A stretch of 52,987 nucleotides of DNA from a virus (Duplodnaviria > Caudoviricetes): positions 1 to 52,987 of IMG/VR virus record IMGVR_UViG_3300018080_000028. One strand, given 5' to 3'. Of this stretch, positions 14,907 to 42,292 are shown in pieces (position 1 is the stretch's first letter; each line of letters starts with the position of its first letter). The notes under the pieces are model-generated. The model had not been told where the DNA came from. It did no database searches and worked only from the letters and a program-made list of their open reading frames with translations. The position numbers and the translations under genes are program-made.

Positions 14907-14927
14907 TTTTCTCCCATGTGAAAAACA

Positions 14928-15823: not shown

Positions 15824-15943
15824 ATCTTTTCTCCTTTTCTAACTTGATTACTTGTTCCTATACTTTCTCATGTATTCTCTATTGTATTTTCTTCTGTTTT
15901 TTTTCACGCCTGGTCTCTGCTGGCAGTAGATTAACCGCCATAC

Positions 15944-16501
15944 CTATACCTCTCCTCCATTCCCCTGATAAGGGTGATTTAACTCAGTAAATTCTAACCA
16001 CTCCCGGATCGCCACAGCCAGTGGAAACACCTGCGCCGGAACAACCGCATTGCCCAATGCTTTCAATCTCTTCGCCCTATACGGCGACGAACCCGATACC
16101 CGCGGTGGCTCCCACGATTGCTGTTTTTCGCCCGGTCTGGCGGGCCATCGTCTAACAATGTCCACCCTATCGGGAATCCCATTAGTGCCTCTACGAAATC
16201 GGGGTTTAATCGTTCTCCTGGCTTTGACGCGACCTGTACATTTAGTTGAAGTTTGTTTGTTTTGCCCCACCTGGATTGGGGGGGCGTTTTCTTTTGAATC
16301 TTGTACCATTGGCGTGCGCCATAGTTTTACGACTTCGGATAGACGGGCGAAGGATTGCCCACCATTGTATCTCTGCCGTATATTCCCCGTCTGGGTGATA
16401 TGTATCTTGTCCGCGCGACCATTCATTTTCCCCGCCACGCTGAACGGCTGACACGGGAACCCCGCTGTAATCACATCTACATACGGCAGATTTGTGATCA
16501 A
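15944..16501 (-). pseudogene. Remnant of a C5-cytosine DNA methyltransferase
   Basis: Keeps motif IV (AGFPCQPFSVAG) and motif X (RLKALGNAVVP) but lacks motif I and the ENV region. Confidence 0.75.
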
Positions 16502-17332: not shown

Positions 17333-17379
17333 AATTTACCTTTCTCAACTTGACTACCTATAATCGTTATGATATGTAA

Positions 17380-24537: not shown

Positions 24538-24580
24538 ATAATGCCTCCAGCATATAATGCAACCAGCGTTAATGCTGGTT
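24535..24580. repeat. 16-bp tandem repeat plus palindrome (candidate centromere/operator)
   Basis: CATATAATGCCTCCAG then CATATAATGCAACCAG; AACCAGC-GTTAAT-GCTGGTT inverted repeat. Confidence 0.55.
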
Positions 24581-25690
24581 TGCCAGTGCCATTCTTAATC
24601 CACCTGCTGCATTCATGTCCATTAGCCGGACACCCTTCAGGGTTTCGACAGCGCTGTGGTCAAAAATCAGGTCCCCGTACATTTGGCGCAGGTGTTTTTG
24701 AATGAGAGCTGCCCCGCCGCCAACCACAATCACGCTGCGGCAGGTACGCGATGCCTCATACCCTGTATCGATGATGACGTTGGCGACCCAGTTGGCGTAC
24801 AGGTTGCAACGTGACTCAAACATACGTCCCAGCTTGACCGTATTTTGTGGGCCGTACAACTGGCAGTCCTGTTTACACTTGTCACAGGGGTTGCGCGATT
24901 TCGATGGGAAACAGGTTGATTTACGTTTCAACCAGCGCCGCAAAACCTCATCGATGTCACACCAGTTAAAATGGTCAAACTGTGAGCTTTCTCGTTGCAG
25001 GTCGCGCAAAACTGGCAACAGGACGTGGGATTTGATTCCGCCGTCGGTGCTGGTTTGAAACGCTTCCGGGTTAAACTGCCCGTCCTGGATGATGAAATGA
25101 TCGCTGGTCAACACGCCAAGGTCAATCACCAGATTTCTGCCGCTGAGAGCATTGGTCGGCACCTGCTCGCCGTTTTCATTGAGCACAAAACAGGCGATTG
25201 CGCCCAATCCTTCGGGCCATACTGTTACCGACCTGTAGGTCCACGTGCGCGGGTTTTTGTCGCGCTTGAACTGAATATAGGCTCGGTGGTCCAGGAACTC
25301 TTTTTTGATTTTGTTTTTTCGTCGGGCGTATACTCCGGGCGGGCAGAATACGGTCAGGTCGATGGGTTCGGGCTTCACGTGGAATTTTTGCATAATTTTG
25401 GCGATGGTTACGTCGGTCAAAAACATATGTACGCCGTCGCCATAACGCAACAGCGACTGGTGCATTTCGACTCGGCGGCGCGAGATACGCATTACGTCGT
25501 CGCCTACTACAAACCTGCCTTCAGGGGTTTCAACCCATTCAAATGACAATTCACGTTTGCCCAGTCCGAGACTGTCTCCGGTGACACTGGCGCGGATACT
25601 GGGCAATTGGAAACCGTGGATACGGCCTGAATTGTCTCGGACAAACACGTTACACATCCCGTTTCCGGTGTCAGCGCTGCCGATAATCAT
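24569..25690 (-). CDS. parM: ParM/StbA-family actin-like ATPase
   Basis: Actin-fold motifs ADTGNG, VWPEGLGA, VIDLGVLTSD, VVGGGA and MNAAGG. Confidence 0.88.
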   Translation of the reverse strand: MIIGSADTGNGMCNVFVRDNSGRIHGFQLPSIRASVTGDSLGLGKRELSFEWVETPEGRFVVGDDVMRISRRRVEMHQSLLRYGDGVHMFLTDVTIAKIMQKFHVKPEPIDLTVFCPPGVYARRKNKIKKEFLDHRAYIQFKRDKNPRTWTYRSVTVWPEGLGAIACFVLNENGEQVPTNALSGRNLVIDLGVLTSDHFIIQDGQFNPEAFQTSTDGGIKSHVLLPVLRDLQRESSQFDHFNWCDIDEVLRRWLKRKSTCFPSKSRNPCDKCKQDCQLYGPQNTVKLGRMFESRCNLYANWVANVIIDTGYEASRTCRSVIVVGGGAALIQKHLRQMYGDLIFDHSAVETLKGVRLMDMNAAGGLRMALANQH

Positions 25691-27778: not shown

Positions 27779-28121
27779 GGTCGCCGTCCCCCATGGTCTC
27801 GTTAAACCGGAAGTTTTCCCCGTTGATTTCGCGGATCAGGTCGTTAAGAATGGTGACAACTTTAGCCTCAAAGTAGGGGTGGGTGTATTTGCCGAACAGG
27901 GTGAAATTGGTATGCTCCTCCATGTCGTCGGTCGTCTCAAAGATGATGTAGGCTACCGTGTAGCGGTACGAGTATTTGCGGATTGTCATTTCGGCATCCA
28001 CCCACGGGTTGATATGTGGCAGAATCAGGTCGTCGATGTCGGCTTCCAGGAATTCGTCAAATTTAGGCGGCGGTTTATACTTCTGCCACTTCAGGGTGTC
28101 CAGGTCAACTTTGGTCAACAT
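27771..28121 (-). CDS. Hypothetical acidic protein
   Basis: GAGG SD; packed operon. Confidence 0.6.
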   Translation of the reverse strand: MLTKVDLDTLKWQKYKPPPKFDEFLEADIDDLILPHINPWVDAEMTIRKYSYRYTVAYIIFETTDDMEEHTNFTLFGKYTHPYFEAKVVTILNDLIREINGENFRFNETMGDGDHD

Positions 28122-28315
28122 AAGACACCTCTAGGGTGCACCCAGACAAATCGTTTACGGCGTTTGTGAAAGGACAGCAGTTTTGCGTCCGGGGAGGCTT
28201 TAGCCACGGTTTTTGCTGTAGCCACAATCAGTTTCCAGTCGCGGTCTGACAGGCGGTGGCCGGGCGTTTTTTTCCTGGCTCGCGCCAGCGTTTTAGCCGG
28301 TCGTTTATCGTACAT
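28115..28315 (-). CDS. Hypothetical basic protein
   Basis: GGAGG SD; packed operon. Confidence 0.55.
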   Translation of the reverse strand: MYDKRPAKTLARARKKTPGHRLSDRDWKLIVATAKTVAKASPDAKLLSFHKRRKRFVWVHPRGVLC

Positions 28316-28820
28316 CTCGTAATTCCTCCAAAATCCAGTCTAACAGGTCGGAAGCTGAATCAAACTCTCTCACCAGCGCCCACGGGTACTGGTTGTCCGG
28401 GTCTTCCGGGTCAGCGTTGTCAGAATAGAGTGAGATTGAATTGGAAGTCAGGCGCAACTGGTAGTCCACGAACCGGGGCAATTGCGCAAGCTGTTGTTGT
28501 AATTGTACAACATTAACGTCGGTTTTCATTGCAGCCGAACGGTAGAGGGGTTGGTAGTTGCGGCGGGACTGGTCAAAACGCATGAGCGTGTATGACATTC
28601 CCATATTATCGAGAGCGTCCGTAGTTGCGATTGTGACCTCTGTTAATCCGGTGTAATACAGTTCAACGTCCACGTCAGGGTGTTCCAGCGCCCATTTTCT
28701 GGTCGCGTGGTAAGCCTCAGCGTAGGCTTTTTGTCCGTGGGATTGGATGTCTGACAGCAGGTATTCGTCAACTGGCATATCGTGGCGGGCGCTGATGGTT
28801 CCGAGTTTAATGGTAGGCAT
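28305..28820 (-). CDS. Hypothetical protein with Rossmann-like N-terminal domain
   Basis: GAGGAGG SD; ARHDMPV and VELYYTGLT motifs. Confidence 0.6.
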   Translation of the reverse strand: MPTIKLGTISARHDMPVDEYLLSDIQSHGQKAYAEAYHATRKWALEHPDVDVELYYTGLTEVTIATTDALDNMGMSYTLMRFDQSRRNYQPLYRSAAMKTDVNVVQLQQQLAQLPRFVDYQLRLTSNSISLYSDNADPEDPDNQYPWALVREFDSASDLLDWILEELRDVR

Positions 28821-29136
28821 TAAATTCCTCCTCTATGCTGTCCGGGCGTTCGCCCAGCAGGAACATCCGGCGCGGGTAGGGGCGTGTCTGCAGACTAAAG
28901 CGGATGCCCAGGATGGTGAATCTGCGTCTGAGCGAGTAGATTGAGGCGATTTGATACAGCGCCTGCCACACGTCCCACGTAACGATACGGCGCGTGTTTT
29001 TCCAGCTGGCATACTGGTAGACAACCGTGAAGATGGGATAGGTGAACGTCCCGTCTTCGTTGTCGGTATGGGTGAGGGGCGGTTCGTCATCCATTATGTT
29101 ATCGTCAACGAAACCGCCGGGTGTCAGTTTAAACAT
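28807..29136 (-). CDS. Hypothetical protein
   Basis: Start MFKL with GAGG SD. Confidence 0.55.
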   Translation of the reverse strand: MFKLTPGGFVDDNIMDDEPPLTHTDNEDGTFTYPIFTVVYQYASWKNTRRIVTWDVWQALYQIASIYSLRRRFTILGIRFSLQTRPYPRRMFLLGERPDSIEEEFNAYH

Positions 29137-29506
29137 CCTCATCCTCCACCATGTCCTCCAGTTCCAGTATCCACCATGTACAGCGGCGGCCACAATCGTG
29201 ACACTGCGGGTTGTGTTCGTGTCCGGCGGTGGTATTGGTTGCGTTACAGTAGGGGCATGTCCATTTCCGGTCGGGGAAATGATAGGGCAGGGTCATGGAA
29301 AACTTGTAGGGCGGCATATCGTTGCTCTCGTAGTTTTCAACTTCCCACCTGATCATGTCGTTTTCCGGTTGGGGGATGTCCTCCGGGTTTGAGAGCCAGA
29401 TTCGGAATTCATATCCGTTGCTGGATTCAAACTGGCAACCATGTGCGCCGTCCGTATGGGATGATATGTAATTAAATTCCTCCAGGGCGGAATCAAATTC
29501 ATTCAT
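29129..29506 (-). CDS. Acidic Zn-ribbon protein
   Basis: CPYC...CHDC. Confidence 0.6.
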   Translation of the reverse strand: MNEFDSALEEFNYISSHTDGAHGCQFESSNGYEFRIWLSNPEDIPQPENDMIRWEVENYESNDMPPYKFSMTLPYHFPDRKWTCPYCNATNTTAGHEHNPQCHDCGRRCTWWILELEDMVEDEDV

Positions 29507-30044
29507 AGGACGTATTCTCCCGGTAGGTCAGAAATTCATCCAGTGCTTCGATGAGCTGCTGGCCGAGATTTATTGGCGGTTCGGAGGTTTGGCATTCGGC
29601 CAGATATTTTTCGCGGTCGGCTTTTTGGGCCAACAATTCGTCGATTATGTCGGCGATGTCGGCCTGCAACTTGCTGATGGCTTTTTCGTTGGGGCGGTTA
29701 ACGGAAATATAAGCGTTCGGCGAATATATGCCGCTGTGGTCCCCCAACAGTTTGACGTAAACTGCTATGCGCCACACCGGATAATCTTCCGGGTCTTCCG
29801 ACCTGTAGTTCTGGTTGAGGTCCACTGATACTGAGGCTGTCAAACTCACCAGTCCGTCGGGCGAAATAAACTCGTTTTTATCGAGTTCTCCGTGTGGGAT
29901 GCCGAGCCAGTCCAGCACCTGTTCCAGTTGTTGTCCTTCGAGCCTGTCCTGTATGGCCTGCATTTTAGCCAGTTTCGCCGCTTCTTCAGCGGCTTTTTGT
30001 TGGGCGGCTTTTTGCGCTTTGCGTAATTCAGCCTGCCATGTCAT
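29499..30044 (-). CDS. Hypothetical protein
   Basis: AAAGGA SD; coiled-coil ends. Confidence 0.65.
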   Translation of the reverse strand: MTWQAELRKAQKAAQQKAAEEAAKLAKMQAIQDRLEGQQLEQVLDWLGIPHGELDKNEFISPDGLVSLTASVSVDLNQNYRSEDPEDYPVWRIAVYVKLLGDHSGIYSPNAYISVNRPNEKAISKLQADIADIIDELLAQKADREKYLAECQTSEPPINLGQQLIEALDEFLTYRENTSYE

Positions 30045-31143
30045 GGTATTGTCCTTTCACTCGTAATTTGACGGTAAATTTATCGGGGCGATCTTCAGCC
30101 CCGCGTATTAACAGGATATTCTGTTGCGGGGCAAAACGGAACTCCAGCAGCTCGGAAAACGTTTCCAGCAATGAGGGGTTGGTATAACGCGGTCGGGTGC
30201 CCCCCTGTTTTTTGGTGGCCGATTTCATCCGTTTCACAATGGCGAGTCCGTCCATGACGGTTTCGGTGATAGCGGGAATGGTGTGTTCTAGTTTATGCCA
30301 ACCGGCATAAGCCGAGTCGTCGGTCAGCACAAAAACGTCGTTTGACACCCAGTACCACACCCTCACTGGTTCGTCGGGCAAGAGAGCGGGTCCGGGTATT
30401 CCTGCGCCATTAACTTTGTTCAATTTGTATTTGGTCTCACGAGCCAGTTTCCAACCTGTATCCGGCAGTTCCGGGTGTTTGGGGTCAGTGGTGCGTTGCA
30501 CCAGTCTGTGGATGTCGATTTCGGCGCAGGTGCAACCGGTTTGTACCGTTAGCGGTTTACAACTGGCGGGTGTGGCTCCCACGATGTCCAGTCGGTTGTT
30601 TTGCCGGTCAAATTTCAGGACAGCGCGGTCGGCACTTTTCATTCCCTTTCGCGCTTTTTTGATGGCGTTTATCAGGTCCAGTCTTCGGACTCTGGCAACC
30701 AGCGGGGCATTGTCCACGCTCTGTTGTTGTGCTCGTTGTTCGGCTTCGGTTTCGCGTCTGCGGCGCAATTTATCAAGGTCGTTTGTGACCTTCTGGCGCT
30801 GTTTGGCAAAAAATTCCAACCAGAAAGCATCTCCTTCACCGTTGGTGCCGGGTTTCGCGCCGATGGCGATGAATAAATCAGAGCTGTATGTGTGCCTCCA
30901 TGTCCACGTCATACCGGCGGACACCAGCAATTTTTGGAATATGCGCGACTCCATCGGTTGTGGTTGATATCCCGGTTTGATGCGCTCCAGCATTTGTTGG
31001 TATTCTTCCTGCTGGTATTGTTGGGTGAGGTCACCTAACAAACGGTCGTATTCGCAGGCGCGCCATGTTCGTTCGCCGTCTCTGGGCAGGACTCTGCGCC
31101 AGTAGGCGGGTTCGGGTTTGTTGAATGTTGGTTTAGGGAACAT
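30028..31143 (-). CDS. Hypothetical protein
   Basis: Start MFPKP with GGAGG SD; 371 aa. Confidence 0.7.
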   Translation of the reverse strand: MFPKPTFNKPEPAYWRRVLPRDGERTWRACEYDRLLGDLTQQYQQEEYQQMLERIKPGYQPQPMESRIFQKLLVSAGMTWTWRHTYSSDLFIAIGAKPGTNGEGDAFWLEFFAKQRQKVTNDLDKLRRRRETEAEQRAQQQSVDNAPLVARVRRLDLINAIKKARKGMKSADRAVLKFDRQNNRLDIVGATPASCKPLTVQTGCTCAEIDIHRLVQRTTDPKHPELPDTGWKLARETKYKLNKVNGAGIPGPALLPDEPVRVWYWVSNDVFVLTDDSAYAGWHKLEHTIPAITETVMDGLAIVKRMKSATKKQGGTRPRYTNPSLLETFSELLEFRFAPQQNILLIRGAEDRPDKFTVKLRVKGQYHDMAG

Positions 31144-31150
31144 GGTATTA

Positions 31151-31987
31151 TTACCTCCTGAGCAACAGTTGCAGAACGTCGGACATACATGATTGTTCGG
31201 TGTCACGTTTGAACACGGAACCGCAATCGCTTTCGATTCCCCATACGGACGATTCATCGATAATCCGGTGGTCGATTGTCAGAACGGCTATACAAACTAG
31301 GTGAAAAAGTCTGTCGTTCTTGAAATTCATGAGTCGTTTCATGTCCTGGCGTGCAATTGAACGGGCATACCGGCAAGCATTGGCCCAGGGCTGGTGTTTT
31401 TGTGAGAGTTTTTTATGCTTACTGGCGGGCATATCGTCAGTGATTCCGGCTTTGACGCACAACAGTTTGTAGTGGTAGTCACGGATGCTTTTGAAACTAT
31501 TGCATTCGTTATAGTACCAGTGGTCGTTGTATCGCGGTGTTGGCGGCACACGGATAGCTCCTACAATATCCGGTTTGCCTTTGACGATTTCGCCCAGGTA
31601 GTATGTGTCCGGGGAGGGGTCGATTTCCCAGCGGGTTCGGATTTTAACACCTGGTAGAGCCGCCAATAATTCAGGCGGCATTGGTATATCCGGTTCGGTG
31701 GGATTTTTGGCGGTTGTTGCAAATAAAAATCCGAGCAAACGAGTGCCCAGTGGATTCCAGTCCACAAAGGCGATGGGGGCTGCGCGTTCCGGGTGACGTA
31801 TCAGTGTATCGCGCACAGCGTAAAGACGATTCAGCAGGTGTCTGGCATATCCTGGTTCAGACAACACCAGAAATGAGTCTGCCGATTCAATGATTTCACG
31901 GGCGCGAAAAATTACGCGCGCCAGTGATCCGGTGTGCATCGGAAAACGTTGTCCTGTTAATGTTCGCAGGTAAAGTATACAGTCCAT
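31151..31987 (-). CDS. Hypothetical early protein
   Basis: AAGGAG SD; C-terminal SVWGIESD motif. Confidence 0.7.
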   Translation of the reverse strand: MDCILYLRTLTGQRFPMHTGSLARVIFRAREIIESADSFLVLSEPGYARHLLNRLYAVRDTLIRHPERAAPIAFVDWNPLGTRLLGFLFATTAKNPTEPDIPMPPELLAALPGVKIRTRWEIDPSPDTYYLGEIVKGKPDIVGAIRVPPTPRYNDHWYYNECNSFKSIRDYHYKLLCVKAGITDDMPASKHKKLSQKHQPWANACRYARSIARQDMKRLMNFKNDRLFHLVCIAVLTIDHRIIDESSVWGIESDCGSVFKRDTEQSCMSDVLQLLLRR

Positions 31988-31990
31988 AAT

Positions 31991-32164
31991 TCAACTCCTT
32001 TTGGGCAATTGCCCGGTATGGTGCAGATAGTCGAGTGTCCGCCCTTTCACCCAAAAAACCCAGGTCAACCGGACTTTTGGGTTCGGGTGGGCAATGGATA
32101 TGGCAAAACGGTTGGTAATCACAATTCCATGCCATTGATCGGGTTCGCTCCAGTTAGACAACAT
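31991..32164 (-). CDS. Hypothetical protein
   Basis: GGAG SD; fills the operon gap. Confidence 0.5.
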   Translation of the reverse strand: MLSNWSEPDQWHGIVITNRFAISIAHPNPKVRLTWVFWVKGRTLDYLHHTGQLPKRS

Positions 32165-33008
32165 GTGATTTCTCCAGCCTGGTTGTGACAAAACGGTGTT
32201 GGTGGCGGCGGTAGATTTTCAGGTTGGTATATCCGATGTCCACCAGTTCGGCAAGCAGTTTGCCGTAGCGGTAAGCGGGTGCGGGTTCTGTCAGTTTCAG
32301 GCAATGGTGATAATCGGCTGCGCCGTGTTGTCCGACGTGTTCATAGGACATACACTGGCCCGGATGTACAACGCTGGCGGGTTCAGTCGGGAAAAACGCG
32401 ATGATTTTGTTTCCGGTTTTCCATTGGCGAAAGATGACCGGCGTTTCCGGTTCATCTGATTTGAGATAACCCAGCACCATCATGGCGGCGCGAATTTCAT
32501 CGTGGGACATATAATCGGGTGACGTTTCGTAGTTCAGTTCGCCCATTTCGTACAGGACGTGGTAGCTCCAGTTGGGGGGCGGGTTGTCGATAACCTCGTG
32601 ACCGTATCCTGTCCTGATGTCGTTGGCGGCGATTTCCTGTTCAGTGTTTGAGTAGTGTTCCTCGTCCGCAATCGGGTAATCATCGAGTCGCTGATACCAT
32701 TCGACCATTCGGAGTCCTGCGCTGGTAAGCTGCCCGTCTTCGGTCAACAACCGGACTCCGAGCGCTTTCAGGTGCCCAAACATTGTGAGGGCTTCCAGTA
32801 TTTCCCAGTCGGCGGCTGGTTCGTGTATCTTCAGGTCGCCGGAAATGACAGCAAAATTACTGAGAGCAAGTGCCCCTGCTCCGTGTCCGCACAGTTGCAC
32901 GACTGCCCATGTTTTGCCGTATTTTTCGCCGCCGTCAAATTTAGCGACATATCCGCCGTAGGTGTTCGCCAGCATTTCTTGAGCGATTTTCATTTCATCT
33001 TGAAGCAT
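32154..33008 (-). CDS. Two-domain hypothetical early protein
   Basis: GGAGGAG SD; LDDYPIADEEHYS domain plus C-terminal SYEHVGQH domain. Confidence 0.7.
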   Translation of the reverse strand: MLQDEMKIAQEMLANTYGGYVAKFDGGEKYGKTWAVVQLCGHGAGALALSNFAVISGDLKIHEPAADWEILEALTMFGHLKALGVRLLTEDGQLTSAGLRMVEWYQRLDDYPIADEEHYSNTEQEIAANDIRTGYGHEVIDNPPPNWSYHVLYEMGELNYETSPDYMSHDEIRAAMMVLGYLKSDEPETPVIFRQWKTGNKIIAFFPTEPASVVHPGQCMSYEHVGQHGAADYHHCLKLTEPAPAYRYGKLLAELVDIGYTNLKIYRRHQHRFVTTRLEKSHVV

Positions 33009-33089
33009 GTTTTTTTTCTCCTCCAGATAGTAACAGGGGCGGGTAACCCAGTCCCGGCCCGGTGCCGGGACTGGTTATGTTTGGCGGGA

Positions 33090-33677
33090 TTATTTAAGCA
33101 TATCCTGCACCGCTGCCATTAGGCGCAAGGCCCATCCGGGTTTATCGCCAGTGGTTGCGTGTGTGGTGCGAAACAGGACTCCGTCGGTCAACCGGATGAG
33201 GGTGTAATAGCGGGTGTTGTATTTCCGGCTGCCAGCACACGTCATGACCAGATACACAGCGTCCCGGTCGGTGGTTCTGACAGTGCCGTCTGAAACGAAT
33301 TCGCCCTCATACATGTAGCCGTCGTCATGTTCGGGGTTTACCCGGTCGATTCGTTTTACCCATGACGTAAATCGGCTGTCAACCGGACTGCCCGCAACCC
33401 TGATGAGTTTTGGCAGCAGGTCGTCAATCGGATATTCCACGGCAATCCCGGCTGCGATTTCCGCTTCCCGCCGGTCGTGGTTTATCGCCCTTTGAGCGCG
33501 AGCCTTGGCATCCGCCAGTTGGGGATACCACGTGTCCATGGGTTCCCCGTCGCGGTAGGGTGTCCACGTCTCTTTGCGATACGGTTTTTCCGAGATGACG
33601 TGTTCAATGTAGTACCGGTTGTCCGGCTTATACACGAGCCGACCAGCCTTTTCTTCTGTCCATTTATCTTGGTTCAT
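33090..33677 (-). CDS. Hypothetical early protein
   Basis: GGAGG SD; WVKRIDRV...DGYMYEGEF motif. Confidence 0.7.
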   Translation of the reverse strand: MNQDKWTEEKAGRLVYKPDNRYYIEHVISEKPYRKETWTPYRDGEPMDTWYPQLADAKARAQRAINHDRREAEIAAGIAVEYPIDDLLPKLIRVAGSPVDSRFTSWVKRIDRVNPEHDDGYMYEGEFVSDGTVRTTDRDAVYLVMTCAGSRKYNTRYYTLIRLTDGVLFRTTHATTGDKPGWALRLMAAVQDMLK

Positions 33678-33713
33678 TATTCCCTCCGTTCTAAAGGGCG
33701 GTTATTCGCCCGA

Positions 33714-33745
33714 TTTGACTCCCAAACCCGGCATTGTGCCGGGCT
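33714..33745. repeat. 32-bp intergenic repeat, copy 1
   Basis: TTTGACTCCCAAACCCGGCATTGTGCCGGGCT, identical at 34672-34703. Confidence 0.95.
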
Positions 33746-33774
33746 GGGAGCTACTGTTTTATGTCGAGATGGGA

Positions 33775-34368
33775 TTAGCAGTGAAATGATGCGAGTCCTA
33801 TGGCGGCGTTGGCATCGTGTATCCTGTCAAGGGGTTCAAGGTATGAATCCCAACAGATATAGGGCCATGTCAGCAGGGGAAAATCTATATCTGTGCTGAA
33901 CGGGAAAAATGAACCGGACTCGGCGGCGGCCTGAAAATCGTTCAGAGTCCATTTGAGGGTATTCAGATTAAGAAAGGGGGTTTCCGTGTCAGTTTGCAGG
34001 GCGTTGATTGCGGATTGTAGTAGGGCGGTCATGGTGGGGATGTACTGACGCGAAAAATGTGCGGTTGCCTGGCTGGTGTCGGCTGGCGGCTCGATGGCGA
34101 GTCGTCGGAATGCGTTGTTAATGGACATGTCCACAAGCGCGGTGTAGGGGTCTTTGCTGGTGCGGATGGACTCCGGTAGGGGGTTGTTTTTGTCTCCGTC
34201 GGTCATGAGTCCTGATTTACTGAGCGCTCCAGCGTGGTGATACCAACTGTCGCCGGGCATTCCGTGTAAGTCAGCATAATCATCAAACACCCCTTCAGCG
34301 TCGTCTTTCAGTTCGGCGGGTGATTGTGCGTTATGCGAAAATAAAAAAGCGAGCGTGACATATCCCAT
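33775..34368 (-). CDS. Hypothetical early protein
   Basis: GGAGG SD; 197 aa. Confidence 0.65.
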   Translation of the reverse strand: MGYVTLAFLFSHNAQSPAELKDDAEGVFDDYADLHGMPGDSWYHHAGALSKSGLMTDGDKNNPLPESIRTSKDPYTALVDMSINNAFRRLAIEPPADTSQATAHFSRQYIPTMTALLQSAINALQTDTETPFLNLNTLKWTLNDFQAAAESGSFFPFSTDIDFPLLTWPYICWDSYLEPLDRIHDANAAIGLASFHC

Positions 34369-34372
34369 GCGG

Positions 34373-34618
34373 TTAGCCTCCGATATCTAGAATAGTGTGG
34401 ATGACAAAGGCGACGACTCCGGCGGTGGTTGGTTGCCCGCGGTGCTGGACTCTGGCGTACAATGAGACGGTGGCGAGTCGGTCGTCAAGCTCTTGCTGCC
34501 AGTGGAGTCCGCCCGATACGGGCAAAGTGTCTTGGGGTTCGTAGGCTTTGCTTACGATGTGCGCCCAGTCCGAGTCATGTTCTGTTATACTGTCCAGATG
34601 TTTTTGTAGTTTGGTCAT
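34373..34618 (-). CDS. Hypothetical early protein
   Basis: Start MTKL with AGGAAAGG SD. Confidence 0.6.
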   Translation of the reverse strand: MTKLQKHLDSITEHDSDWAHIVSKAYEPQDTLPVSGGLHWQQELDDRLATVSLYARVQHRGQPTTAGVVAFVIHTILDIGG

Positions 34619-34671
34619 GAACCTTTCCTTCTGTGCCAATTGGCACTATATTCGGCGTGGTAGCCGGTCGT

Positions 34672-34703
34672 TTTGACTCCCAAACCCGGCATTGTGCCGG
34701 GCT
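34672..34703. repeat. 32-bp intergenic repeat, copy 2
   Basis: Identical to 33714-33745. Confidence 0.95.
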
Positions 34704-34729
34704 AGGTGATGCTTCGTTATGGCTGGCGG

Positions 34730-35353
34730 TTAGTTGGGATTGGCTGCGGGTTTTGTCGGCATGTCGGCAATCAGTTTATCTACAATCTGGACACAGGCCA
34801 AAGCATGCGCCAGTGAGACTCCGCCGGGCAGCACAACGTCCGGCAATGTTGCGGATTTTTCCAGTTCGGCGAGTATATCGGGGATGTCCTCATTCAGCAG
34901 TTTTTTCCCGCGTTGCTGGTCGTTCGGGTCTGGAGATGCGGTCAATTGGACTCCCTTGATAGTGCATAATATCGCCCCGATATTGGCAAGTTGGCGCATT
35001 TTGTGGTTGTGGGGGTTTATATGGACGGTCGCTCCGCTTGCCGCCGGGGGTAATTCAACCGAAAACACCGAGCGGCGGGTATCGGTGCCCTGGCGCAATG
35101 TTTCGCAATTGGGGCAAATTGTGACGGATTCGTCTGTATAACGCTCTCCGCATATCCGGCATGATTTGCGTTTTGATTTCCCGTTGTACTGGCGTTCTCC
35201 CAGTACATCCGCCTGGACATAGATAGAGACATTCGAAGCCTGCCCGTTGTCGGTATTGAGGCGGGCATAAGCGGAGTCGTTTTTCCCTCTGCCGCCAATC
35301 CTGAGACTCCTGTGCTCGTTTCCTGCGGTCAAAAAAACGTTGACTCGTGTCAT
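34730..35353 (-). CDS. Early protein with Zn ribbon
   Basis: AGGAG SD; CRIC...CPNC. Confidence 0.7.
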   Translation of the reverse strand: MTRVNVFLTAGNEHRSLRIGGRGKNDSAYARLNTDNGQASNVSIYVQADVLGERQYNGKSKRKSCRICGERYTDESVTICPNCETLRQGTDTRRSVFSVELPPAASGATVHINPHNHKMRQLANIGAILCTIKGVQLTASPDPNDQQRGKKLLNEDIPDILAELEKSATLPDVVLPGGVSLAHALACVQIVDKLIADMPTKPAANPN

Positions 35354-35371
35354 GACTATTATCTCCTGTGA

Positions 35372-35629
35372 CTAGTGCAAATATACGATTTGTGATTCCA
35401 CGTCTTCGCGGCTTTTGGTCATGTAAACGTCAGCGGGGTTCTGCGTGTCTTTGAGTGTGTAATGATGCTGGCGTTCTGTTCCAATGATGGTTATCTCTAG
35501 ATACCAGTCTGATACTTTGACAGTTTCCCGCTGCCATGTTACGCGGCGATTCTCCCACAATATTTGGTAGGATACTGTCCTGTCCATTTCGTTTAGCACG
35601 TGTAGGATGTGCTGGTTTGTGTTTATCAT
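35372..35629 (-). CDS. Hypothetical early protein
   Basis: Start MINT with GGAAGG SD. Confidence 0.6.
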   Translation of the reverse strand: MINTNQHILHVLNEMDRTVSYQILWENRRVTWQRETVKVSDWYLEITIIGTERQHHYTLKDTQNPADVYMTKSREDVESQIVYLH

Positions 35630-35648
35630 GTGTTTTCCTTCCTGGTTA

Positions 35649-36119
35649 CTACGCCAATGAAACCGTGAGCGCGTCATTATTACCGGCGACAATATAGCAG
35701 ATTGCCCCGTGTTGCAATTCCCGGCGGGTTATGGTGTGCAACGGGCTCACTACTGTGTAGGGCTCGTCGTCAAAATACCAATTGCGCCAGTCTCTCAATT
35801 GTTCCCGCATCTCGGAAATAGTTTCGCAATGGTAAATTTCGTTGGGCATATAGAGTCCACGTTGGCCTATTTGCACAACGATTCGCCGCTGAGTTCGTTT
35901 ACGCGGGTAAACCTGGTGGTATGGTGTGGTTGCGAGATATGGCGCGTTATAATCGGTGACCCATGTTTCGGTGATTTCGGCATTGCCGACAAGCCGAAAA
36001 GCGCCCGTTATGTCGCCGTCTGTGTAATACTCGTTGGCGATTTGCTCTAATTCGCCGATATCGGTCGTGTAGTGGTATTTCGAGGTAAATTCGCTGGCCG
36101 TACGTGTTTTTGTGTTCAT
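35649..36119 (-). CDS. Hypothetical early protein
   Basis: Start MNTK with AGGAG SD. Confidence 0.6.
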   Translation of the reverse strand: MNTKTRTASEFTSKYHYTTDIGELEQIANEYYTDGDITGAFRLVGNAEITETWVTDYNAPYLATTPYHQVYPRKRTQRRIVVQIGQRGLYMPNEIYHCETISEMREQLRDWRNWYFDDEPYTVVSPLHTITRRELQHGAICYIVAGNNDALTVSLA

Positions 36120-36717
36120 TTCTGATTTGACTCCTGTATTCAATCGGTCGTTTTTTACCTGCGTCTGATTTCTCGTTTTCTGCCCGTAGCGCGTCATAAT
36201 CCCGGCGGCAATCGTCAAGCCGGGCCTGCAGTGTTTGTATAGTCTCGCGTGTTTGCTGGTTTAGTTCAGCGCTCCGGCGATTCAGTCGTTTTCGGTAGTC
36301 GTTTAGCTTGGCGTATAATCTCGCGTTTTCTGCTTTCAATTCGTGCATCTCGTTGTCATTCATGGTCGATTCCGTGGATTGTGTAGGCGCGTTTGTGGGT
36401 GTGCTCGCGTGTGTATGTGCGCGCGCGGTATTTTTAATAGTCTCGGTTGACCCGTCAAAACTGGTGGACATCTGTTCTGATTCGGCCTGTTCTGTTGTGG
36501 GTGATTTTGGCCTGGTGCGTATGCGCCTAATTACCCATTGCCCGTAGCGGTATGATTTGTCGGCTTGTATGGTTAGTAGGATAGAGTCAATGTCGGTATT
36601 CGGCAATTGGCGCATGTGCTGTAATTCGGCTATACGCCTACGCAACCACGCTACAGACGTATAGCGGTATAGCTCATAATTGCTATGTGACACTGTATAG
36701 GTGTAGCGTGTCTTCAT
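35947..36717 (-). CDS. First early gene, coiled-coil protein
   Basis: Start MKTR downstream of the early promoter; Thr/Ser linker and coiled coil; its tail overlaps the next gene by about 170 nt. Confidence 0.6.
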   Translation of the reverse strand: MKTRYTYTVSHSNYELYRYTSVAWLRRRIAELQHMRQLPNTDIDSILLTIQADKSYRYGQWVIRRIRTRPKSPTTEQAESEQMSTSFDGSTETIKNTARAHTHASTPTNAPTQSTESTMNDNEMHELKAENARLYAKLNDYRKRLNRRSAELNQQTRETIQTLQARLDDCRRDYDALRAENEKSDAGKKRPIEYRSQIRNEHKNTYGQRIYLEIPLHDRYRRIRANRQRVLHRRRHNGRFSACRQCRNHRNMGHRL

Positions 36718-36799
36718 CACGGATTTTTCCAGTAAAATCGGGTTGTGGTGTGGAGTTTTTGATGCTGCGAGCAGACCGATTTTATTATGTTTTGATGAT

Positions 36800-36828
36800 A
36801 GCTTAGCACGTATTTTGCATTTTTGCAA
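36800..36828 (-). promoter_or_regulatory. Early leftward promoter
   Basis: TTGCAA-17-TAAGCT with extended -10 TG. Confidence 0.65.
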
Positions 36829-36829
36829 T

Positions 36830-37510
36830 AGGTTATTCTGATATTTACGTTTAACAATTCTATCTCAACTATTGACAATTCTATTTTTATTTTCAACATT
36901 ACGGCGGAGATTACAACGACAAACGCAAACAATAGCACGTAAGAACAAGTGCACAATCTAAATGGTATCTAATCAAACGCACAACACGCACAGTGAGATG
37001 TAAACAGCGCAACGGATACAAACACACATGCAATCTAGATAAACAGCGTAAAAGGTACGTTAAATGATGTAATGGGTATGGCTAATAGTAGGGGTATTAT
37101 AACAAACAGGATTACAATAACACATAACATAACAATAAGCATTACAAACACAATCATATAACAACAGATATAACGCTATAACAAGGGACGTTACAATACA
37201 CAATATAAGACAAAGCGCAACACTGTAACACTGAAGATAATTGTTTATGTTGCAAGTTATGTTGTGTGTAATGTGTGGTGTGTATGTGTAGCGCTATTAC
37301 GTGAGTATAAGGTTCAAACGCTGAGGCCAGTTCCGGTGGGAGAGTCTTTTGTTCGACAGGTACTTTTCAAAAACATTTTAACGGCAAATTGTGGTATAAT
37401 CTATCTATTGCAGAGGGTTTCACCCCAAATGGTAACGGCGTAGGTATACAAAACAGGACAAACAATAATTAGAAACCCTCTGCATTTTACAACAGGGGAG
37501 GGGGATAATC
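36830..37510. other. Non-coding, strand-skewed region between divergent arms (candidate genome end/packaging or resolution region)
   Basis: No credible ORF; A/C-rich up to about 37240 and T/G-rich after; lies upstream of the terminase operon. Confidence 0.6.
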
Positions 37511-37512
37511 CA

Positions 37513-37806
37513 ATGCCAAGACTATCACCGGTACAACGAAACCAGATGGTAAGCACAGTCAAAGACCTGTTACGCTCCAATGGTTTAACAGATCGGGCAT
37601 CGATGTACATTTTTTCAAGGTTATTCCAGAGACGGGTGCCAAGTGCTCAACATCTTACTTACCAGGACTGGTTGATGTTTCGGGAGACTGTATATCCTGA
37701 TTGGCAGAGCGGGTCATGGGATGTAAGTGAGCGGTTTAAGTTAGCGGTGATGGAATTGTGTTATCATTTTCGTGAGGAGATACTGGGACAGAAGAGGCTG
37801 TTATGA
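37513..37806 (+). CDS. Hypothetical protein
   Basis: GGAGG SD; TGGTATAAT extended -10 at 37392-37400. Confidence 0.65.
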   Translation: MPRLSPVQRNQMVSTVKDLLRSNGLTDRASMYIFSRLFQRRVPSAQHLTYQDWLMFRETVYPDWQSGSWDVSERFKLAVMELCYHFREEILGQKRLL

Positions 37807-38015
37807 ATTGTCCAAAATGTTTGAGTTGGCGGGTTGTCAGCAAATCGCACTTCGATGACCGTTTACGCAAAGATATTCCGGTTAACAGGCAGATGCCGGA
37901 CACGCTGGTTACGGGGTGGAGGGCGATGTGCCTCAACTGTGGTTATCGCTGGAACGTGGCTGCAACAAAGGGGACGTATCCTGTCGAAAACGCCACTACC
38001 GATAAGGAGACATAA
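37803..38015 (+). CDS. Small Zn-ribbon protein
   Basis: CPKC...CLNC; ATGA and TAATG coupling. Confidence 0.65.
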   Translation: MNCPKCLSWRVVSKSHFDDRLRKDIPVNRQMPDTLVTGWRAMCLNCGYRWNVAATKGTYPVENATTDKET

Positions 38016-39028
38016 TGTATTGTATGCGTTGCGGGGAATTACTTACTCCGCAGGACAACGGCAGATTCTGGTGTGCTAAGTGTGACCGTTTTTACCTGCC
38101 GGAAGAACACGAGTTGTTAAAACCATATCAGCATACGGCTCCTGTCGAAGATGCCACCACTGACCTTGCAGTTTTGGACGATGATGAATTTGAACATATT
38201 TTAGCGTTGGAAAGAACGCTGCAACCGTTGCATCGCAAATTTCTTAATGAGTACCTGCGCCATTTTAACCGGTCAAAAGCAGCCAGGTCTGTTGGTTTTG
38301 ACATCGGCACCGGCTACAGGGTGCTCAATCGACCGGATGTTCGTAAAATTGTGAGTTTTTACCTTGAACGGGACCTGCTCAGCGCCCGTGAAACAATGCG
38401 TGAACTGGGGGATATTGCGCAGAATGCAACACTGGAAGAGGCGTTCGATTCTAATGGCGATTTTGATTTTCGGCTTGCCCGTGACAATGGTGTGGCGCGA
38501 TTTATACAACGTGTTCGTTTTGATGGCAAAACCGGCCAGGTGATCGAAGTGGCAATGCTCGATCGCACTAAAGCTCTGGCGGTGATGGCAAAGGCCCATG
38601 GGCTGTACGATCATAGAAAGGAAGCGGATTGGCGTGGAGAACTTAAAAAAGCTGGAATCGACGAAAAAAACGTCCTCACAGCCCTCGTCCAGTTCCTGGT
38701 CAACAAGCAGCTTGAACGAAATGCTGGAGAAGCTGGAACCGGAAGTGCGCGGGTCGTTGTCGGAGAAGGCAATTCACAGCCTGTTGAGCGAAGCGGTGGA
38801 ACAGTCGCGGCAACAGATGGAGGTGATAGAGGCCGAAGGGTTGAAAGATTACCAGCCCTACGGAGCAGCGAAGAGTATCCAACAATGCCAACACGACGAG
38901 ATTCTGATCTGGGGTCCGGCGGGGACCGGCAAAAGTCTGGCCTGCCTGAAAAAAGTTCACAATCTGATGGTGAGTTATCCGGGGGCGAGAGCGCTGGTAG
39001 TGCGCCAGACCAGGACATCCCTTTCTGA
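38015..39028 (+). CDS. terS: Terminase small subunit with N-terminal Zn ribbon and long overlapping tail
   Basis: RKFLNEYLRHFNRSKAARSVGF HTH, ELGDIA and DRTKALAVMAKAHG motifs; upstream of terL. Confidence 0.85.
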   Translation: MYCMRCGELLTPQDNGRFWCAKCDRFYLPEEHELLKPYQHTAPVEDATTDLAVLDDDEFEHILALERTLQPLHRKFLNEYLRHFNRSKAARSVGFDIGTGYRVLNRPDVRKIVSFYLERDLLSARETMRELGDIAQNATLEEAFDSNGDFDFRLARDNGVARFIQRVRFDGKTGQVIEVAMLDRTKALAVMAKAHGLYDHRKEADWRGELKKAGIDEKNVLTALVQFLVNKQLERNAGEAGTGSARVVVGEGNSQPVERSGGTVAATDGGDRGRRVERLPALRSSEEYPTMPTRRDSDLGSGGDRQKSGLPEKSSQSDGELSGGESAGSAPDQDIPF

Positions 39029-40157
39029 CACCGGACTGGTCACTTTTGAACGTCATGTGCTTGGCGAGTCTTCACCGATTGTTGGCAACCTGAAACGTAT
39101 CAATCGCCATTCCTACCATTATCCCAATGGTTCAGAGATTGTGATTGGCGGTCTCGACAAACCATCCAGGATTATGTCGGGTGAATACGACATCATTTAT
39201 ATCATGGAAGCCACTGAAATCTCTATTGAGGCGTGGGAGATGCTGTCTACAAGGTTGCGTAATCAGGTTGTTCCTTACCAGCAACTGCTGGCGGACTGTA
39301 ATCCTTCCCATCCCAATCACTGGCTGCGCAAAAGATTCCTCGACGGAACGTTGACCGCTTTTGAAAGCAAACACAAAGACAATCCTCTCCTGTACGACCG
39401 CGATGGCGAACTAACGGAATTCGGCGAAACCTATATGGGGAAACTGTACAAACTGACCGGGCACCGCAAACAGCGTCTTTTGTACGGGAAATGGGCGCTG
39501 GCGGAAGGCGTGGTTTTTGACCAGTTTAATGAATTGATACACCACATCGAACCGTTTACCATTCCGCGCAACTGGCCCCGCTTTTTGAGTATCGACTTCG
39601 GCTATCGCAACCCGTTCTGCTGCGGCTGGTGGGCGGTCTCGCCGGAAGATGTTTTGTATCTGTACCGTGAAATTTATATGCGCGGCAGACTGGTGCGCCT
39701 GCACGCTGAACAGATTATGGATTTGTCGGCCAAAGAAAAAATCCAGTTCGCGGTCTGTGATCATGATGCCGAAGGACGTGATGTGTTCACCAGTATCACC
39801 GGTATTCGCACCGTCGCGGCGCAAAAATCGATCAATGACGGCATCCAGGAGGTGCAATACCGTCTCGACCCGTTTGATGCGCCCACTCCTAAAATATTCT
39901 TTTTTAAAGGAGCGCTGGCCGAAACCGACCACGGTCTCGCGGAAAATATGCTGCCAACCTGTACCGTGGAAGAGTTTGGCGCGTATGTCTGGCGGCAAGA
40001 CCTCGACGGTCGCACCAACAAAGAAGAACCAATCGACGATTTTAACCATGGTATGGATATGATGCGTTATGCAGTTATGCAAATGTATAAAGGACGCAGA
40101 GTGCATGTGATGACCTACCCGCAGTTTTTGCAAAAGGTGAAAGGAGTTGTGGCATGA
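38721..40157 (+). CDS. terL: Terminase large subunit
   Basis: Walker A GPAGTGKS, Walker B IYIMEA, motif III DCNP, nuclease SIDFG and NHGMDMMRY. The start is uncertain. Confidence 0.95.
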   Translation: MLEKLEPEVRGSLSEKAIHSLLSEAVEQSRQQMEVIEAEGLKDYQPYGAAKSIQQCQHDEILIWGPAGTGKSLACLKKVHNLMVSYPGARALVVRQTRTSLSDTGLVTFERHVLGESSPIVGNLKRINRHSYHYPNGSEIVIGGLDKPSRIMSGEYDIIYIMEATEISIEAWEMLSTRLRNQVVPYQQLLADCNPSHPNHWLRKRFLDGTLTAFESKHKDNPLLYDRDGELTEFGETYMGKLYKLTGHRKQRLLYGKWALAEGVVFDQFNELIHHIEPFTIPRNWPRFLSIDFGYRNPFCCGWWAVSPEDVLYLYREIYMRGRLVRLHAEQIMDLSAKEKIQFAVCDHDAEGRDVFTSITGIRTVAAQKSINDGIQEVQYRLDPFDAPTPKIFFFKGALAETDHGLAENMLPTCTVEEFGAYVWRQDLDGRTNKEEPIDDFNHGMDMMRYAVMQMYKGRRVHVMTYPQFLQKVKGVVA

Positions 40158-41305: not shown

Positions 41306-42292
41306 CTAATATGGCAAAAACAGGCTGTGAGATGCCTGTTCCATCTTTTTGTCTCCGCGTTTGTCGTAACGCATGGTGGTGTCTACCGAGGAATGACCGG
41401 CCATTCTTGCGACTGTGATAGCGTCGATCTCTTCTAGCATCAACGAAACAAACGTGTGACGAAGATCGTGGGGAGAAAATTGTTGGATTCCGGCTTGTTT
41501 TGCGCGATCTTTTGTCATGTTGTAAACGGATTGCGCCGATAACCTGCGCCATTCAATTCGCCCGCCGCGCCTCACAGGTAAAAACAGCGGACCGTTACCG
41601 GGCATCGGTTGAAACTCATCGTCACGCGCTTTGGAATGAATGATGGCTTCAGTGCGAAAACTTAACCAGTCCTTAAGCGGTTTTTCAGCGCCGCCAACAA
41701 AAGTTTTTCGTTCTTTGTTGCCTTTGCCGTGTTTGATCCGCAACTCGCCGGAACCTTCAGAATAATCTGCCCAGTTTAAGTTCACAAGCTCGTCGCGCCG
41801 CAACCCGCAGATGTACATGATGCCGAGCATGGCTGCGTCACGAACACCTTTGTGCTGGTTCTGGTCTGCTTTGCAGGTGTCCATCAGCGCTTTTATTTCA
41901 CCTATCTCCAGCTTGCGTCCGGCGGGCAACCTCTCGTCACGAACTCCCGTTACGGCGGCGAGCCTGTGATAACTCTCCGAGTTGGACTGGCCGAGTAGCC
42001 ACGCCTGTTTACAAACGCTGCGCAAAAAAGATAGTTCGCGGTTGATGGTCGCCGGAGCGTATCCCGCTTTTTCAAGCCATGCTCTCACCATGACGGCGTG
42101 CTGGTATTCTAACGATCCCCAATCAATTTCTTCCGGGTTGTTATTCCTGCCGCTGGTTAAAATGTCGGACAGTTTGATCAAACTGTCGCGGGCAATCCGC
42201 CGCGAGCTGGTTGACAGCGTAGCGAGATATACCAGATAGGCGTTGTCGCTGAGCGATTTTTCTGGCTTTTTAGTTAAATTGCTGGTACTCAT
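41306..42292 (-). CDS. Tyrosine recombinase (Cre/Xer-like, no arm-binding domain)
   Basis: Catalytic GLRRDE, HGKGNKER, PHDLRHT and MAGH...TTMRY; 328 aa. Confidence 0.95.
   Translation of the reverse strand: MSTSNLTKKPEKSLSDNAYLVYLATLSTSSRRIARDSLIKLSDILTSGRNNNPEEIDWGSLEYQHAVMVRAWLEKAGYAPATINRELSFLRSVCKQAWLLGQSNSESYHRLAAVTGVRDERLPAGRKLEIGEIKALMDTCKADQNQHKGVRDAAMLGIMYICGLRRDELVNLNWADYSEGSGELRIKHGKGNKERKTFVGGAEKPLKDWLSFRTEAIIHSKARDDEFQPMPGNGPLFLPVRRGGRIEWRRLSAQSVYNMTKDRAKQAGIQQFSPHDLRHTFVSLMLEEIDAITVARMAGHSSVDTTMRYDKRGDKKMEQASHSLFLPY

Follow-up and report, generated by a model that had tools for sequence, protein, structure and literature searches.

We analyzed IMG/VR record IMGVR_UViG_3300018080_000028, the genome of a virus of the Caudoviricetes, and the whole virus record of 52,987 bases was taken as the window. 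In its leftward early operon we found a dense cluster of the pentamer GASTC (S is G or C, that is, GAGTC or GACTC), which is confirmed and lies well beyond chance. The enrichment is a nucleotide-level feature produced by synonymous codon choice and not an amino-acid effect, and the best explanation is that positive selection has favoured GASTC as a signal in the nucleotide sequence of the operon's promoter-proximal ~6.3 kb. We give a probability of roughly 0.45 to the reading in which these pentamers are positively selected as duplex-DNA sites for a reader of restriction-modification (RM) type.

GASTC excess and GATC purge in the early region

The first-pass annotation had counted 12 GAGTC and 13 GACTC sites between 32685 and 36590, and about 10 sites in the first 13 kb; an exact recount gave the same numbers for the former and 10 for the latter. 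The even split between orientations (12:13), which it had also pointed out, was borne out, yet it carries little information because GASTC is its own reverse complement. The whole window contains 67 GASTC sites, in which positions 79 and 52943 are a single site counted twice owing to a 123-bp overlap of the record's ends. The span originally reported is indeed enriched, but the true zone reaches further left, to 30244 (Table 1). Base composition predicts 12.1 sites for the whole zone and 32 were observed (P=1.6e-6), and for the 25 sites of the reported span composition predicts 7.4 (Poisson P=3e-7) and the rest-of-genome rate 3.3 (P=3e-14). The best 3-kb window held 22 sites against 3.8 at the genome-wide rate. 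The borders of the zone are sharp and the motif is scarce outside, at one GASTC per 1333 bp.

It had been proposed that the excess be compared with codon-shuffled and dicodon nulls, and the enrichment outlasted both. Within-gene synonymous permutation of the reported span gave a mean of 11.1 sites (standard deviation, sd, 2.5; maximum 19) and reached the observed 25 in none of 1000 permutations, and synonymous swaps that preserved dinucleotides gave a mean of 12.1 (sd 2.0, maximum 18; 0/200 reached 25). For the 11 open reading frames (ORFs) of the region, which hold 30 sites, a codon-pair Markov model trained on all other genes produced a mean of 6.5 (sd 2.4, maximum 17), and the same model trained on the neighbouring leftward genes a mean of 7.4 (sd 2.6, maximum 19); the observed number was reached in 0/1000 simulations with either training set.

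The excess is specific to the exact pentamer. Among 512 pentamers GACTC/GAGTC was the most region-enriched (p=3.8e-12, the runner-up 2.8e-4), and among 510 pentamers scanned in windows of 1-8 kb GASTC formed the strongest local cluster (-log10P 9.9, the next 7.0). Its density ratio was 6.24, and the ratios of 13 one-mismatch variants ranged from 0.38 to 2.08; several near-variants that differ at a wobble position were depleted (GAGTA 0.38, GAGTT 0.40). In the zone GASTC occurred 32 times against 16.8 expected, and GAWTC (W, A or T) 15 times against 16.6 expected, with frame-1 GAWTC (frames are defined below) realised at 4 of 24 positions. The flanks showed a weak G at -1 and a weak C at +1 only (29/64 symmetrised positions), and a longer hidden motif was therefore rejected, the flanks being nearly information-free. 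As to spacing, the sites tend to fall into sub-clusters: 9 of 19 gaps measured 27-42 bp where 3.2 were expected given the codon-allowed positions (P=0.0008, for a gap window chosen post hoc), and no two GASTC sites lay closer than 27 bp, which was not significant; a protein whose footprint is some 25 bp would fit such spacing, although this is weak evidence.

The same stretch has been purged of GATC. The GATC-free gap (Table 1) has an approximate P of 9e-6 and was the sole significant gap among 15 four-base palindromes; in the core ORFs, for which protein sequence and codon usage predict 13.6 GATC, none was found, the motif having been removed through synonymous choice in all three frames (0/81 compatible positions). 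A wider GATC-depleted zone extends over 27835-37590 (4 against 35.7 expected at the rest-of-genome rate), with 5 against 19.1 expected under the codon-usage model at 27.8-32.1 kb, while the observed/expected ratio of GATC in other gene blocks was 0.72-1.05. TTAA was also low in the core (4 against 11.4 expected). In the segment that adjoins the non-coding region GATC is kept out most strictly and the rule for GASTC is the reverse, and only GATC shows the leading-region type of avoidance, in which a motif is missing from one bounded early segment.

Across the genome, 6-bp GC-rich palindromes were nearly missing: outside the zone GGCGCC, GCCGGC, TCGCGA, CGGCCG, GTCGAC and AAGCTT had no copy, TCCGGA, GCGCGC and GATATC one copy each, and TGGCCA two. 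CCWGG was depleted as well, and GAWTC outside the zone numbered 64 against 103 expected. This scarcity of palindromes suggests that Type II systems are plentiful in the host population, and together with the GATC gap it indicates that the phage is under strong restriction-type selection. The earlier remark that the GASTC enrichment runs opposite to restriction avoidance therefore stands, since it occurs in the very stretch purged of GATC and in a genome where palindromes are scarce throughout.

The GASTC zone adjoins the non-coding region upstream of the terminase genes TerS and TerL, and if packaging proceeds rightward as in lambda, we infer that the zone would be the leading DNA, last packaged and first injected. 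The first-pass annotation had suggested a loading site for a protective or DNA-uptake protein. A signal of the Chi, DNA-uptake-sequence (DUS) or translocase type, at which a protective or DNA-pulling protein would load on the entering DNA, is highly improbable in our estimation: the place of the zone beside a presumed packaging region, and thus, by the lambda analogy, possibly packaged last and injected first, agrees with it, as does a motif written into coding DNA in the manner of uptake sequences, but Chi and translocase guides are orientation-biased and here the two orientations are balanced at 12:13 and interleaved, uptake sequences have 9-12 bases and are spread over the whole host genome, and known DUS, uptake signal sequence and Chi motifs had at most five occurrences in the window.

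Codon choice, reading frame and the level at which the motif is read

Most sites had been placed within unrelated genes, and this was upheld: 23 of the 25 sites lay in seven ORFs, no ORF pair was similar at E<=1, and the other two sat in a 35-nt intergenic repeat. In the whole zone 30/32 sites were inside ORFs, and the two non-coding sites fell within the zone's 355 non-coding bases. Paralogy or repeats as the source of the sites were rejected, there being no ORF similarity and no DNA repeat other than the 35-nt intergenic element. Amino-acid composition was rejected likewise, since the density of compatible dipeptides is ordinary (3.5-8.5 motif-compatible positions per 100 aa in the site-bearing region ORFs). 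What differs is how these positions are spelled: five region ORFs realised 30-71% of their compatible positions and genes elsewhere about 5%, and the region has 30 sites where protein sequence and outside codon usage predict 8.6. The sites are spread over nine ORFs and are mostly spelled GGA, CGA or AGA followed by CTC or GTC. In the core, 9 of 10 Gly-Leu/Val dipeptides were written GGA-CTC or GGA-GTC and 5 of 14 Arg-Leu/Val pairs CGA/AGA-STC; GGA made up 12 of the 14 Gly codons preceding Leu or Val and 32 of 101 otherwise.

The three reading frames contributed unequally. Frame 1 (NGA-STC) had 19 sites against 1.8 expected at 49 compatible positions, frame 0 (GAS-TCN) 8 against 4.3 at 19 compatible positions, and frame 2 (NNG-AST-CNN) 3 against 2.5 at 49. 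Frame 0 was realised at 8/19 positions in the region and 12/86 outside (p=0.009), so the excess is not in one frame only, and many frame-0 positions carry an AGY serine, which cannot be reached by one synonymous step. The region also shuns T-ending codons (GAT 0.29 against 0.55 outside, ACT 0.12 against 0.20), and on the assumption that this avoidance has a cost, frame 2 may be expensive, since it needs ACT or AGT. Because of the frame bias, two rival explanations, one at the level of codon pairs and one at the level of RNA, were kept.

In one of them the pentamer would be a by-product of translation, GGA, CGA or AGA before CTC or GTC being a codon pair that is favoured or tolerated in decoding. 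About 17 of the roughly 21 excess sites do lie in the single frame NGA-STC, frame 1 is the least depleted frame outside the zone (11 against 10.7 expected; the others 12 against 20.2 and 8 against 15.1), and elsewhere in the genome, too, Gly codons that precede Leu/Val are more often GGA (63/155 against 220/896). However, models trained elsewhere predict 6.5 or 7.4 sites and not 30, and near-variants such as GGA-CTG and GGA-GTG showed no enrichment. Three different tRNAs decode the NGA codons and two others CTC and GTC, and the nucleotide string is the only factor common to the codons of these tRNAs. Frame-0 and intergenic sites contribute to the excess as well, and the effect is limited to 6.3 kb of a 24-kb operon of like composition. 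We regard a codon-pair effect as improbable.

The other explanation lies in the message, where GASUC in early mRNAs would be the target of an endoribonuclease or RNA-binding factor that times decay or translation. T4 RegB, for example, cuts GGAG in early messages. The 12:13 split equally fits a sense-strand RNA motif, GASTC being its own reverse complement, all zone genes are on one strand, 16 of the 25 sites appear as GGASUC in the transcript, and a frame-specific excess could be explained by a ribosome-coupled reader. A centre that may be G or C but not A or U is nevertheless chemically odd for single-stranded RNA, no RNase-like family was matched by the region ORFs (PHROGs, Pfam, PADLOC), and the stop at 30.2 kb is left unexplained when the operon runs on to 13.3 kb. 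Local RNA folds round the densest GASTC clusters were no stabler than those of shuffled sequences (z = -1.21 and +0.37), which also led us to reject RNA structure paired between GAGUC and GACUC as the cause. An RNA-level signal is quite unlikely on this evidence.

We favour duplex DNA as the level at which the motif is read because only G or C is tolerated at its centre, A and T being excluded: a two-fold-symmetric reader meets one and the same pair in G:C and C:G at the dyad, and for an RNA or decoding reader the rule would be odd, G and C being without a common property. The same preference follows from the failure of rest-of-genome codon-pair habits to predict the sites, from the end of the effect at 30.2 kb while operon and composition continue, from the five different tRNAs that a decoding effect would involve, and from the unremarkable RNA folding at the densest clusters.

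Candidate readers, relatives and genome layout

GASTC on double-stranded DNA would be read by a two-fold-symmetric or RM-type protein, for which an adenine methyltransferase, an enzyme like PleI, MlyI or N.BstNBI, or another dimeric binder may be considered. To one form of this, a dense block of N6-methyladenine deposited by one of the phage's orphan methyltransferases or by a host enzyme, we attach a rather low probability; the block would mark the first-expressed, possibly first-injected segment, for protection or for the timing of early expression, and if pre-methylated it may tell incoming virion DNA from replicated or prophage DNA or shield the leading segment. An array of binding sites for a phage DNA-binding protein, e.g., intragenic roadblocks that would keep toxic early genes silent in the lysogen, appears unlikely, and nick or cleavage sites that would start recombination or replication appear more doubtful still. 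That an RM-type site was written into the silent positions of the GATC-purged segment as a regional epigenetic or binding mark is likewise a speculative form of the duplex-DNA reading. In support of that reading, the sites are independent and the region ORFs are without paralogy, and two methyltransferase ORFs and a C5-methylase fragment are candidate modifiers.

The orphan beta-class methyltransferase (Table 1) is a candidate reader or modifier of GASTC, and the second, Eco57I-type ORF also matches phrog_799 (E=2.5e-26). Both belong to a DNA-modification gene cluster at 14274-18558 (minus strand), at the distal end of the leftward operon, in which we also observed the C5-methylase fragment (185 aa, with a match at motif I-like residues only) and a PAPS-reductase/SspD-like ORF of 276 aa. 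Endonuclease families were not found in the ORFs scanned, which were not all ORFs of the window, and fast-evolving nucleases can escape profiles; no repressor was found among the family-scanned ORFs and no nuclease or regulator family among the region ORFs.

Near-identical contigs were present in sediment and seawater metagenome runs of four studies, and in these the zone was more than 99% identical. No RNA run was listed among those that contain the phage. A strain-variable spot was noted at 36241-36393 within the first leftward ORF, with small indels in two of the runs (X2 and X3), of which that at 36353-36354 occurs in X2 alone, and with a 12-base insertion behind 36393 in contigs from all four runs. 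Megablast of 32000-37500 against phage records gave no match, and single-protein scans of viral contigs with the 197-aa ORF and the primase/helicase gave nothing. With TerL, viral contigs yielded only a 100%-identical fragment of 4.3 kb, genome contigs nothing, and metagenomes short contigs of 2.0 kb (66% identity) and 1.5 kb (46%); the nearest TerL outside this phage is 66% identical and lies on a contig of about 2-3 kb. In all, 80 loci carried a TerL of 43-51% identity. Of these, 23 measure 15 kb or more, and in them the top-scoring pentamer cluster reached 3.8-6.7, and the clusters inspected in two of them (L057 and L059) were tandem repeats, unlike the GASTC cluster. These arrays lie about 4-5 kb upstream of TerL (L057 5774-5858, L059 5542-5846), one with a 10-bp unit repeated nine times and the other with a unit of about 75 bp repeated five times, and with GAATCC in each unit they look like iterons.

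Several observations weigh against a duplex-DNA signal for an RM-type reader. The excess is nearly confined to frame 1 (frame 1 against frame 2, p=1.7e-4), when a signal purely of DNA would in principle be expected in every frame, and frame 0 in the core (4/10) is about what the region's own codon usage, high in GAC, predicts. The depletion of GASTC outside the zone depends on the null, with 35 sites against 88.5 expected from composition, 31 against 46 under the codon model and 35 against 40.7 under a maximal-order Markov model. Five base pairs are very short for a conventional DNA-binding regulator. The beta-class methyltransferase scores 85.4 bits on the CcrM equivalog NF050803, whose cut-off is 830, and the enzymes related to it are orphans without annotation, spread over very diverse phages and plasmids. 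Among the region ORFs, ten gave no match in PHROGs, the same ten gave one sub-threshold zinc-ribbon hit in Pfam, four gave no match in NCBIfam, and eight gave only weak coiled-coil matches in PADLOC, for the first ORF. Strain variation is low, and of 25 variant positions listed in the zone one (33180) destroys a site. Lastly, GASTC clusters were absent from all 44 TerL loci with a length of at least 9 kb (-log10P at best 2.9, with a median of 1.2; the window, trimmed in the same manner, scores 7.0), and because these 44 distant loci are without it the cluster is not a trait of this terminase clade.

The absence of the cluster from distant TerL relatives is also what would be expected of a historical signature, that is, an early module recombined in from a lineage whose host background was a different one, where GATC was strongly restricted and some process favoured GASTC; the signature would have no present function and would not so far have been lost by drift. 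The early regions of phages are mosaic, the zone ORFs have no detectable relatives, and the zone keeps oligonucleotide rules of its own (GATC is missing, TTAA is scarce, and codons end more often in C and less often in T). In composition, however, the zone is not foreign, since GC content and AT skew are continuous over 19-37 kb, and the identity above 99% in runs from four studies makes it a stable part of the phage. A historical origin moreover only moves the question, as a process would still be needed that gave one out of 16-24 synonymous spellings to 9 of 10 Gly-Leu/Val pairs. We consider this origin unlikely, and the remainder of the probability falls to something not considered here.

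The record's "direct terminal repeat" is the 123-bp assembly overlap, which lies within a structural gene, and because of this end overlap we take the record to be a circular assembly of about 52,864 bp. Rightward structural genes occupy 1-13.1 kb and 44.3-53 kb, and a leftward gene block runs from about 36.7 kb down to 13.3 kb; its ORFs at 27-36.7 kb are without family match, and it also encodes a primase/helicase and an RNase T-type exonuclease. The presence of a tyrosine integrase makes the phage temperate, and with an actin-like partition protein present as well, either a plasmid prophage or an integrated state could exist. The AT-rich non-coding region that separates the leftward operon from the genes running rightward is packed with short direct and inverted repeats of the ATAACA/TTACAA type, includes a perfect 13-bp inverted repeat (37409-37421/37472-37484), and is a presumptive control, origin or packaging region. 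To its right lie two small rightward ORFs and then TerS and TerL (38.0-40.2 kb), the terminase being of PBSX type. The TerS and TerL ORFs overlap by 430 nt in different frames; homology to TerL begins at about residue 64-85 of the TerL ORF, and the match to the TerS family stops at about residue 202-212. In the tail region, two adjacent 370-aa ORFs (8341-9453 and 9456-10568) are 70% identical and form a tandem duplication. A tRNA search found none, and an Rfam search no family.

The region ORFs have ribosome-binding sites, and the site at 36129, which is additional to the internal site of the 156-aa ORF, lies in the AGGAGTC ribosome-binding site of that ORF. The 3' end of the 256-aa ORF overlaps the next gene by about 170 nt, and its PADLOC matches are weak and SMC-like coils only. 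In the ESM Atlas the 371-aa ORF had only one structural lead, clamp-like and of low confidence, and the 278-aa ORF had none; the AlphaFold2 model of the 284-aa ORF was unusable (pLDDT 34), the 197-aa ORF matched itself only among 5.8 billion clusters, and the zinc-ribbon hit of the 207-aa ORF was to Zn_ribbon_3 (16 bits, under the cut-off of 27). Three intergenic GC hairpins with stems of the CCCGGC...GCCGGG type stand between early ORFs (33048-33074, 33711-33745 and 34669-34703) and may be attenuators or elements of RNA processing or stability; the 35-nt repeat that includes two of them had no exact match in viral contigs.

Table 1. Coordinates of the GASTC zone, its genes and other features of the window
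Feature	Coordinates	Strand	Remarks
Whole enriched GASTC zone	30244..36588		32 sites in 6345 bp; 1 per 198 bp
Core of the zone	32685..35346		22 sites in 2662 bp; 1 per 121 bp
GATC-free stretch	32138..37590		5454 bp; co-extensive with the GASTC core
ORF, 371 aa	30028..31143	-	5 sites, 5/16 compatible positions realised; no family match
ORF, 278 aa	31151..31987	-	2 sites; no family match
ORF, 284 aa	32154..33008	-	3 sites, 3/10 compatible positions realised; no family match
ORF, 195 aa	33090..33677	-	1 site; no family match
ORFan, 197 aa	33775..34368	-	6 sites, 6/13 compatible positions realised
ORF, 81 aa	34373..34618	-	5 sites in 246 bp, 5/7 realised; no family match
ORF, 207 aa	34730..35353	-	5 sites, 5/11 realised
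ORF, 156 aa	35649..36119	-	1 internal site; no family match
First ORF of the leftward operon, 256 aa	35947..36717	-	2 sites; basic, coiled coil
Intergenic 35-nt repeat, copy 1	33711..33745	-	GC hairpin followed by UUUGGGAGUC; contains site 33717
Intergenic 35-nt repeat, copy 2	34669..34703	-	97% identical to copy 1; contains site 34675
Orphan beta-class N6/N4 DNA methyltransferase, 392 aa	17380..18558	-	PF01555, 158 bits
Second methyltransferase-like ORF, Eco57I type, 210 aa	14274..14906	-	PF07669, 27.5 bits, cut-off 25.3
Actin-like (ParM/ALP) partition protein	24569-25690		In the leftward block
Tyrosine integrase	41306-42292		
AT-rich non-coding region	36718..37512		Separates the leftward operon from the small rightward genes and the terminase
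Terminase small-subunit ORF (TerS)	38015-39028	+	
Terminase large-subunit ORF (TerL)	38598-40157	+	

Comparison with known systems

In phage genomics, short restriction-type sites have been treated almost solely as sites to be avoided, and here one segment was completely purged of GATC while GASTC was written in wherever codons cheaply allow it. If the sites are read as DNA, RM-type specificity would serve phages as a positive cis signal of regional extent, selection in favour of a Type II-type site in the leading region of a phage, the mirror image of restriction avoidance, would be seen here for the first time, and the oligonucleotide rules of early regions would say more than avoidance, with a bearing on leading-region organisation and host-range prediction. 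If the codon-pair or the RNA reading were true, the selection on synonymous sites, translational or not, would be unusually strong and local. No title or abstract that we found reports a local GASTC excess in a phage, supplements being outside the scope of that search. The evidence comes from one uncultured phage without usable relatives, which is its weakness, and with an exact pentamer, about 30 independent sites and sharp borders the region is a clean test case.

RegB differs from the present case in what it would have to recognise: GGAG is present in 10 of the 13 GAGUC sites, the 12 GACUC sites cannot hold it, and no nuclease family was found in the zone. HIP1 of cyanobacteria and the uptake sequences of Neisseria and Haemophilus are 8-12 bases long and genome-wide in their cellular hosts. 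They resemble GASTC in that the motif is over-represented in genes through codon choice and in preferred frames, whereas GASTC is limited to one phage segment and has five informative bases, not the 9-12 of DNA uptake sequences; the orientation bias that marks Chi and translocase guides is also lacking here. The stoperators of cluster A mycobacteriophages such as L5 are 13-bp asymmetric sites that are mostly intergenic, oriented with transcription and distributed genome-wide. Many copies of a short site along the transcription units of a temperate phage are a likeness that suggests roadblock silencing, but the site here has 5 bp, sits in ORFs in 30 of 32 cases, follows no orientation rule and is regional.

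Clusters of methylation sites act as cis signals at oriC, where SeqA is associated with GATC, and at the P1 pac site. The likeness to these is a local excess of a short, methylatable, palindrome-like site that serves as a regional signal; the difference is that they occupy 0.15-0.25 kb of non-coding or specialised DNA, and the cluster in this phage 2.7-6.3 kb of protein-coding DNA. The T5 first-step-transfer region is a case of region-specific avoidance of restriction sites, and the phage described here is temperate, has a PBSX-type terminase and is not T7- or T5-like.

GASTC is a subset of GANTC, which is methylated by CcrM and HinfI-type enzymes according to the excerpted text of PMC8919816, and the phage has a methyltransferase of the same Pfam family. 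In that excerpt GANTC-family motifs shape the composition of Alphaproteobacteria genomes, methylated motifs are under-represented genome-wide, and unmethylated GASTC is mildly over-represented (log2 observed/expected 0.43); the excerpt reports no local 3- to 6-fold cluster, unlike what we found in this phage. For a CcrM or HinfI reader the four GANTC variants should moreover behave alike, and here GAWTC is not enriched; the phage methyltransferase also stays far from a CcrM equivalog (85.4 bits against 830). GASTC/GAGTC is also, in the excerpt of PMC9799307, the recognition sequence of N.BstNBI, PleI and MlyI of the AlwI family, an identical 5-bp asymmetric sequence that is read either way, and this exact site is the one found here. 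Targets of a host enzyme of this type would be expected to be avoided, and here they are enriched.

The nearest likeness in organisation is that to the first-injected region of Autographiviridae (Murciavirus), where bounded, variable early genes also have restriction-motif rules of their own. The excerpted part of PMC12455610 states that restriction motifs in these phages matter only in the first-injected region and there decide sensitivity, which fits the idea that the GASTC zone is a leading segment. In the phages of that excerpt a motif was lost, whereas here a second motif was gained in the same stretch.

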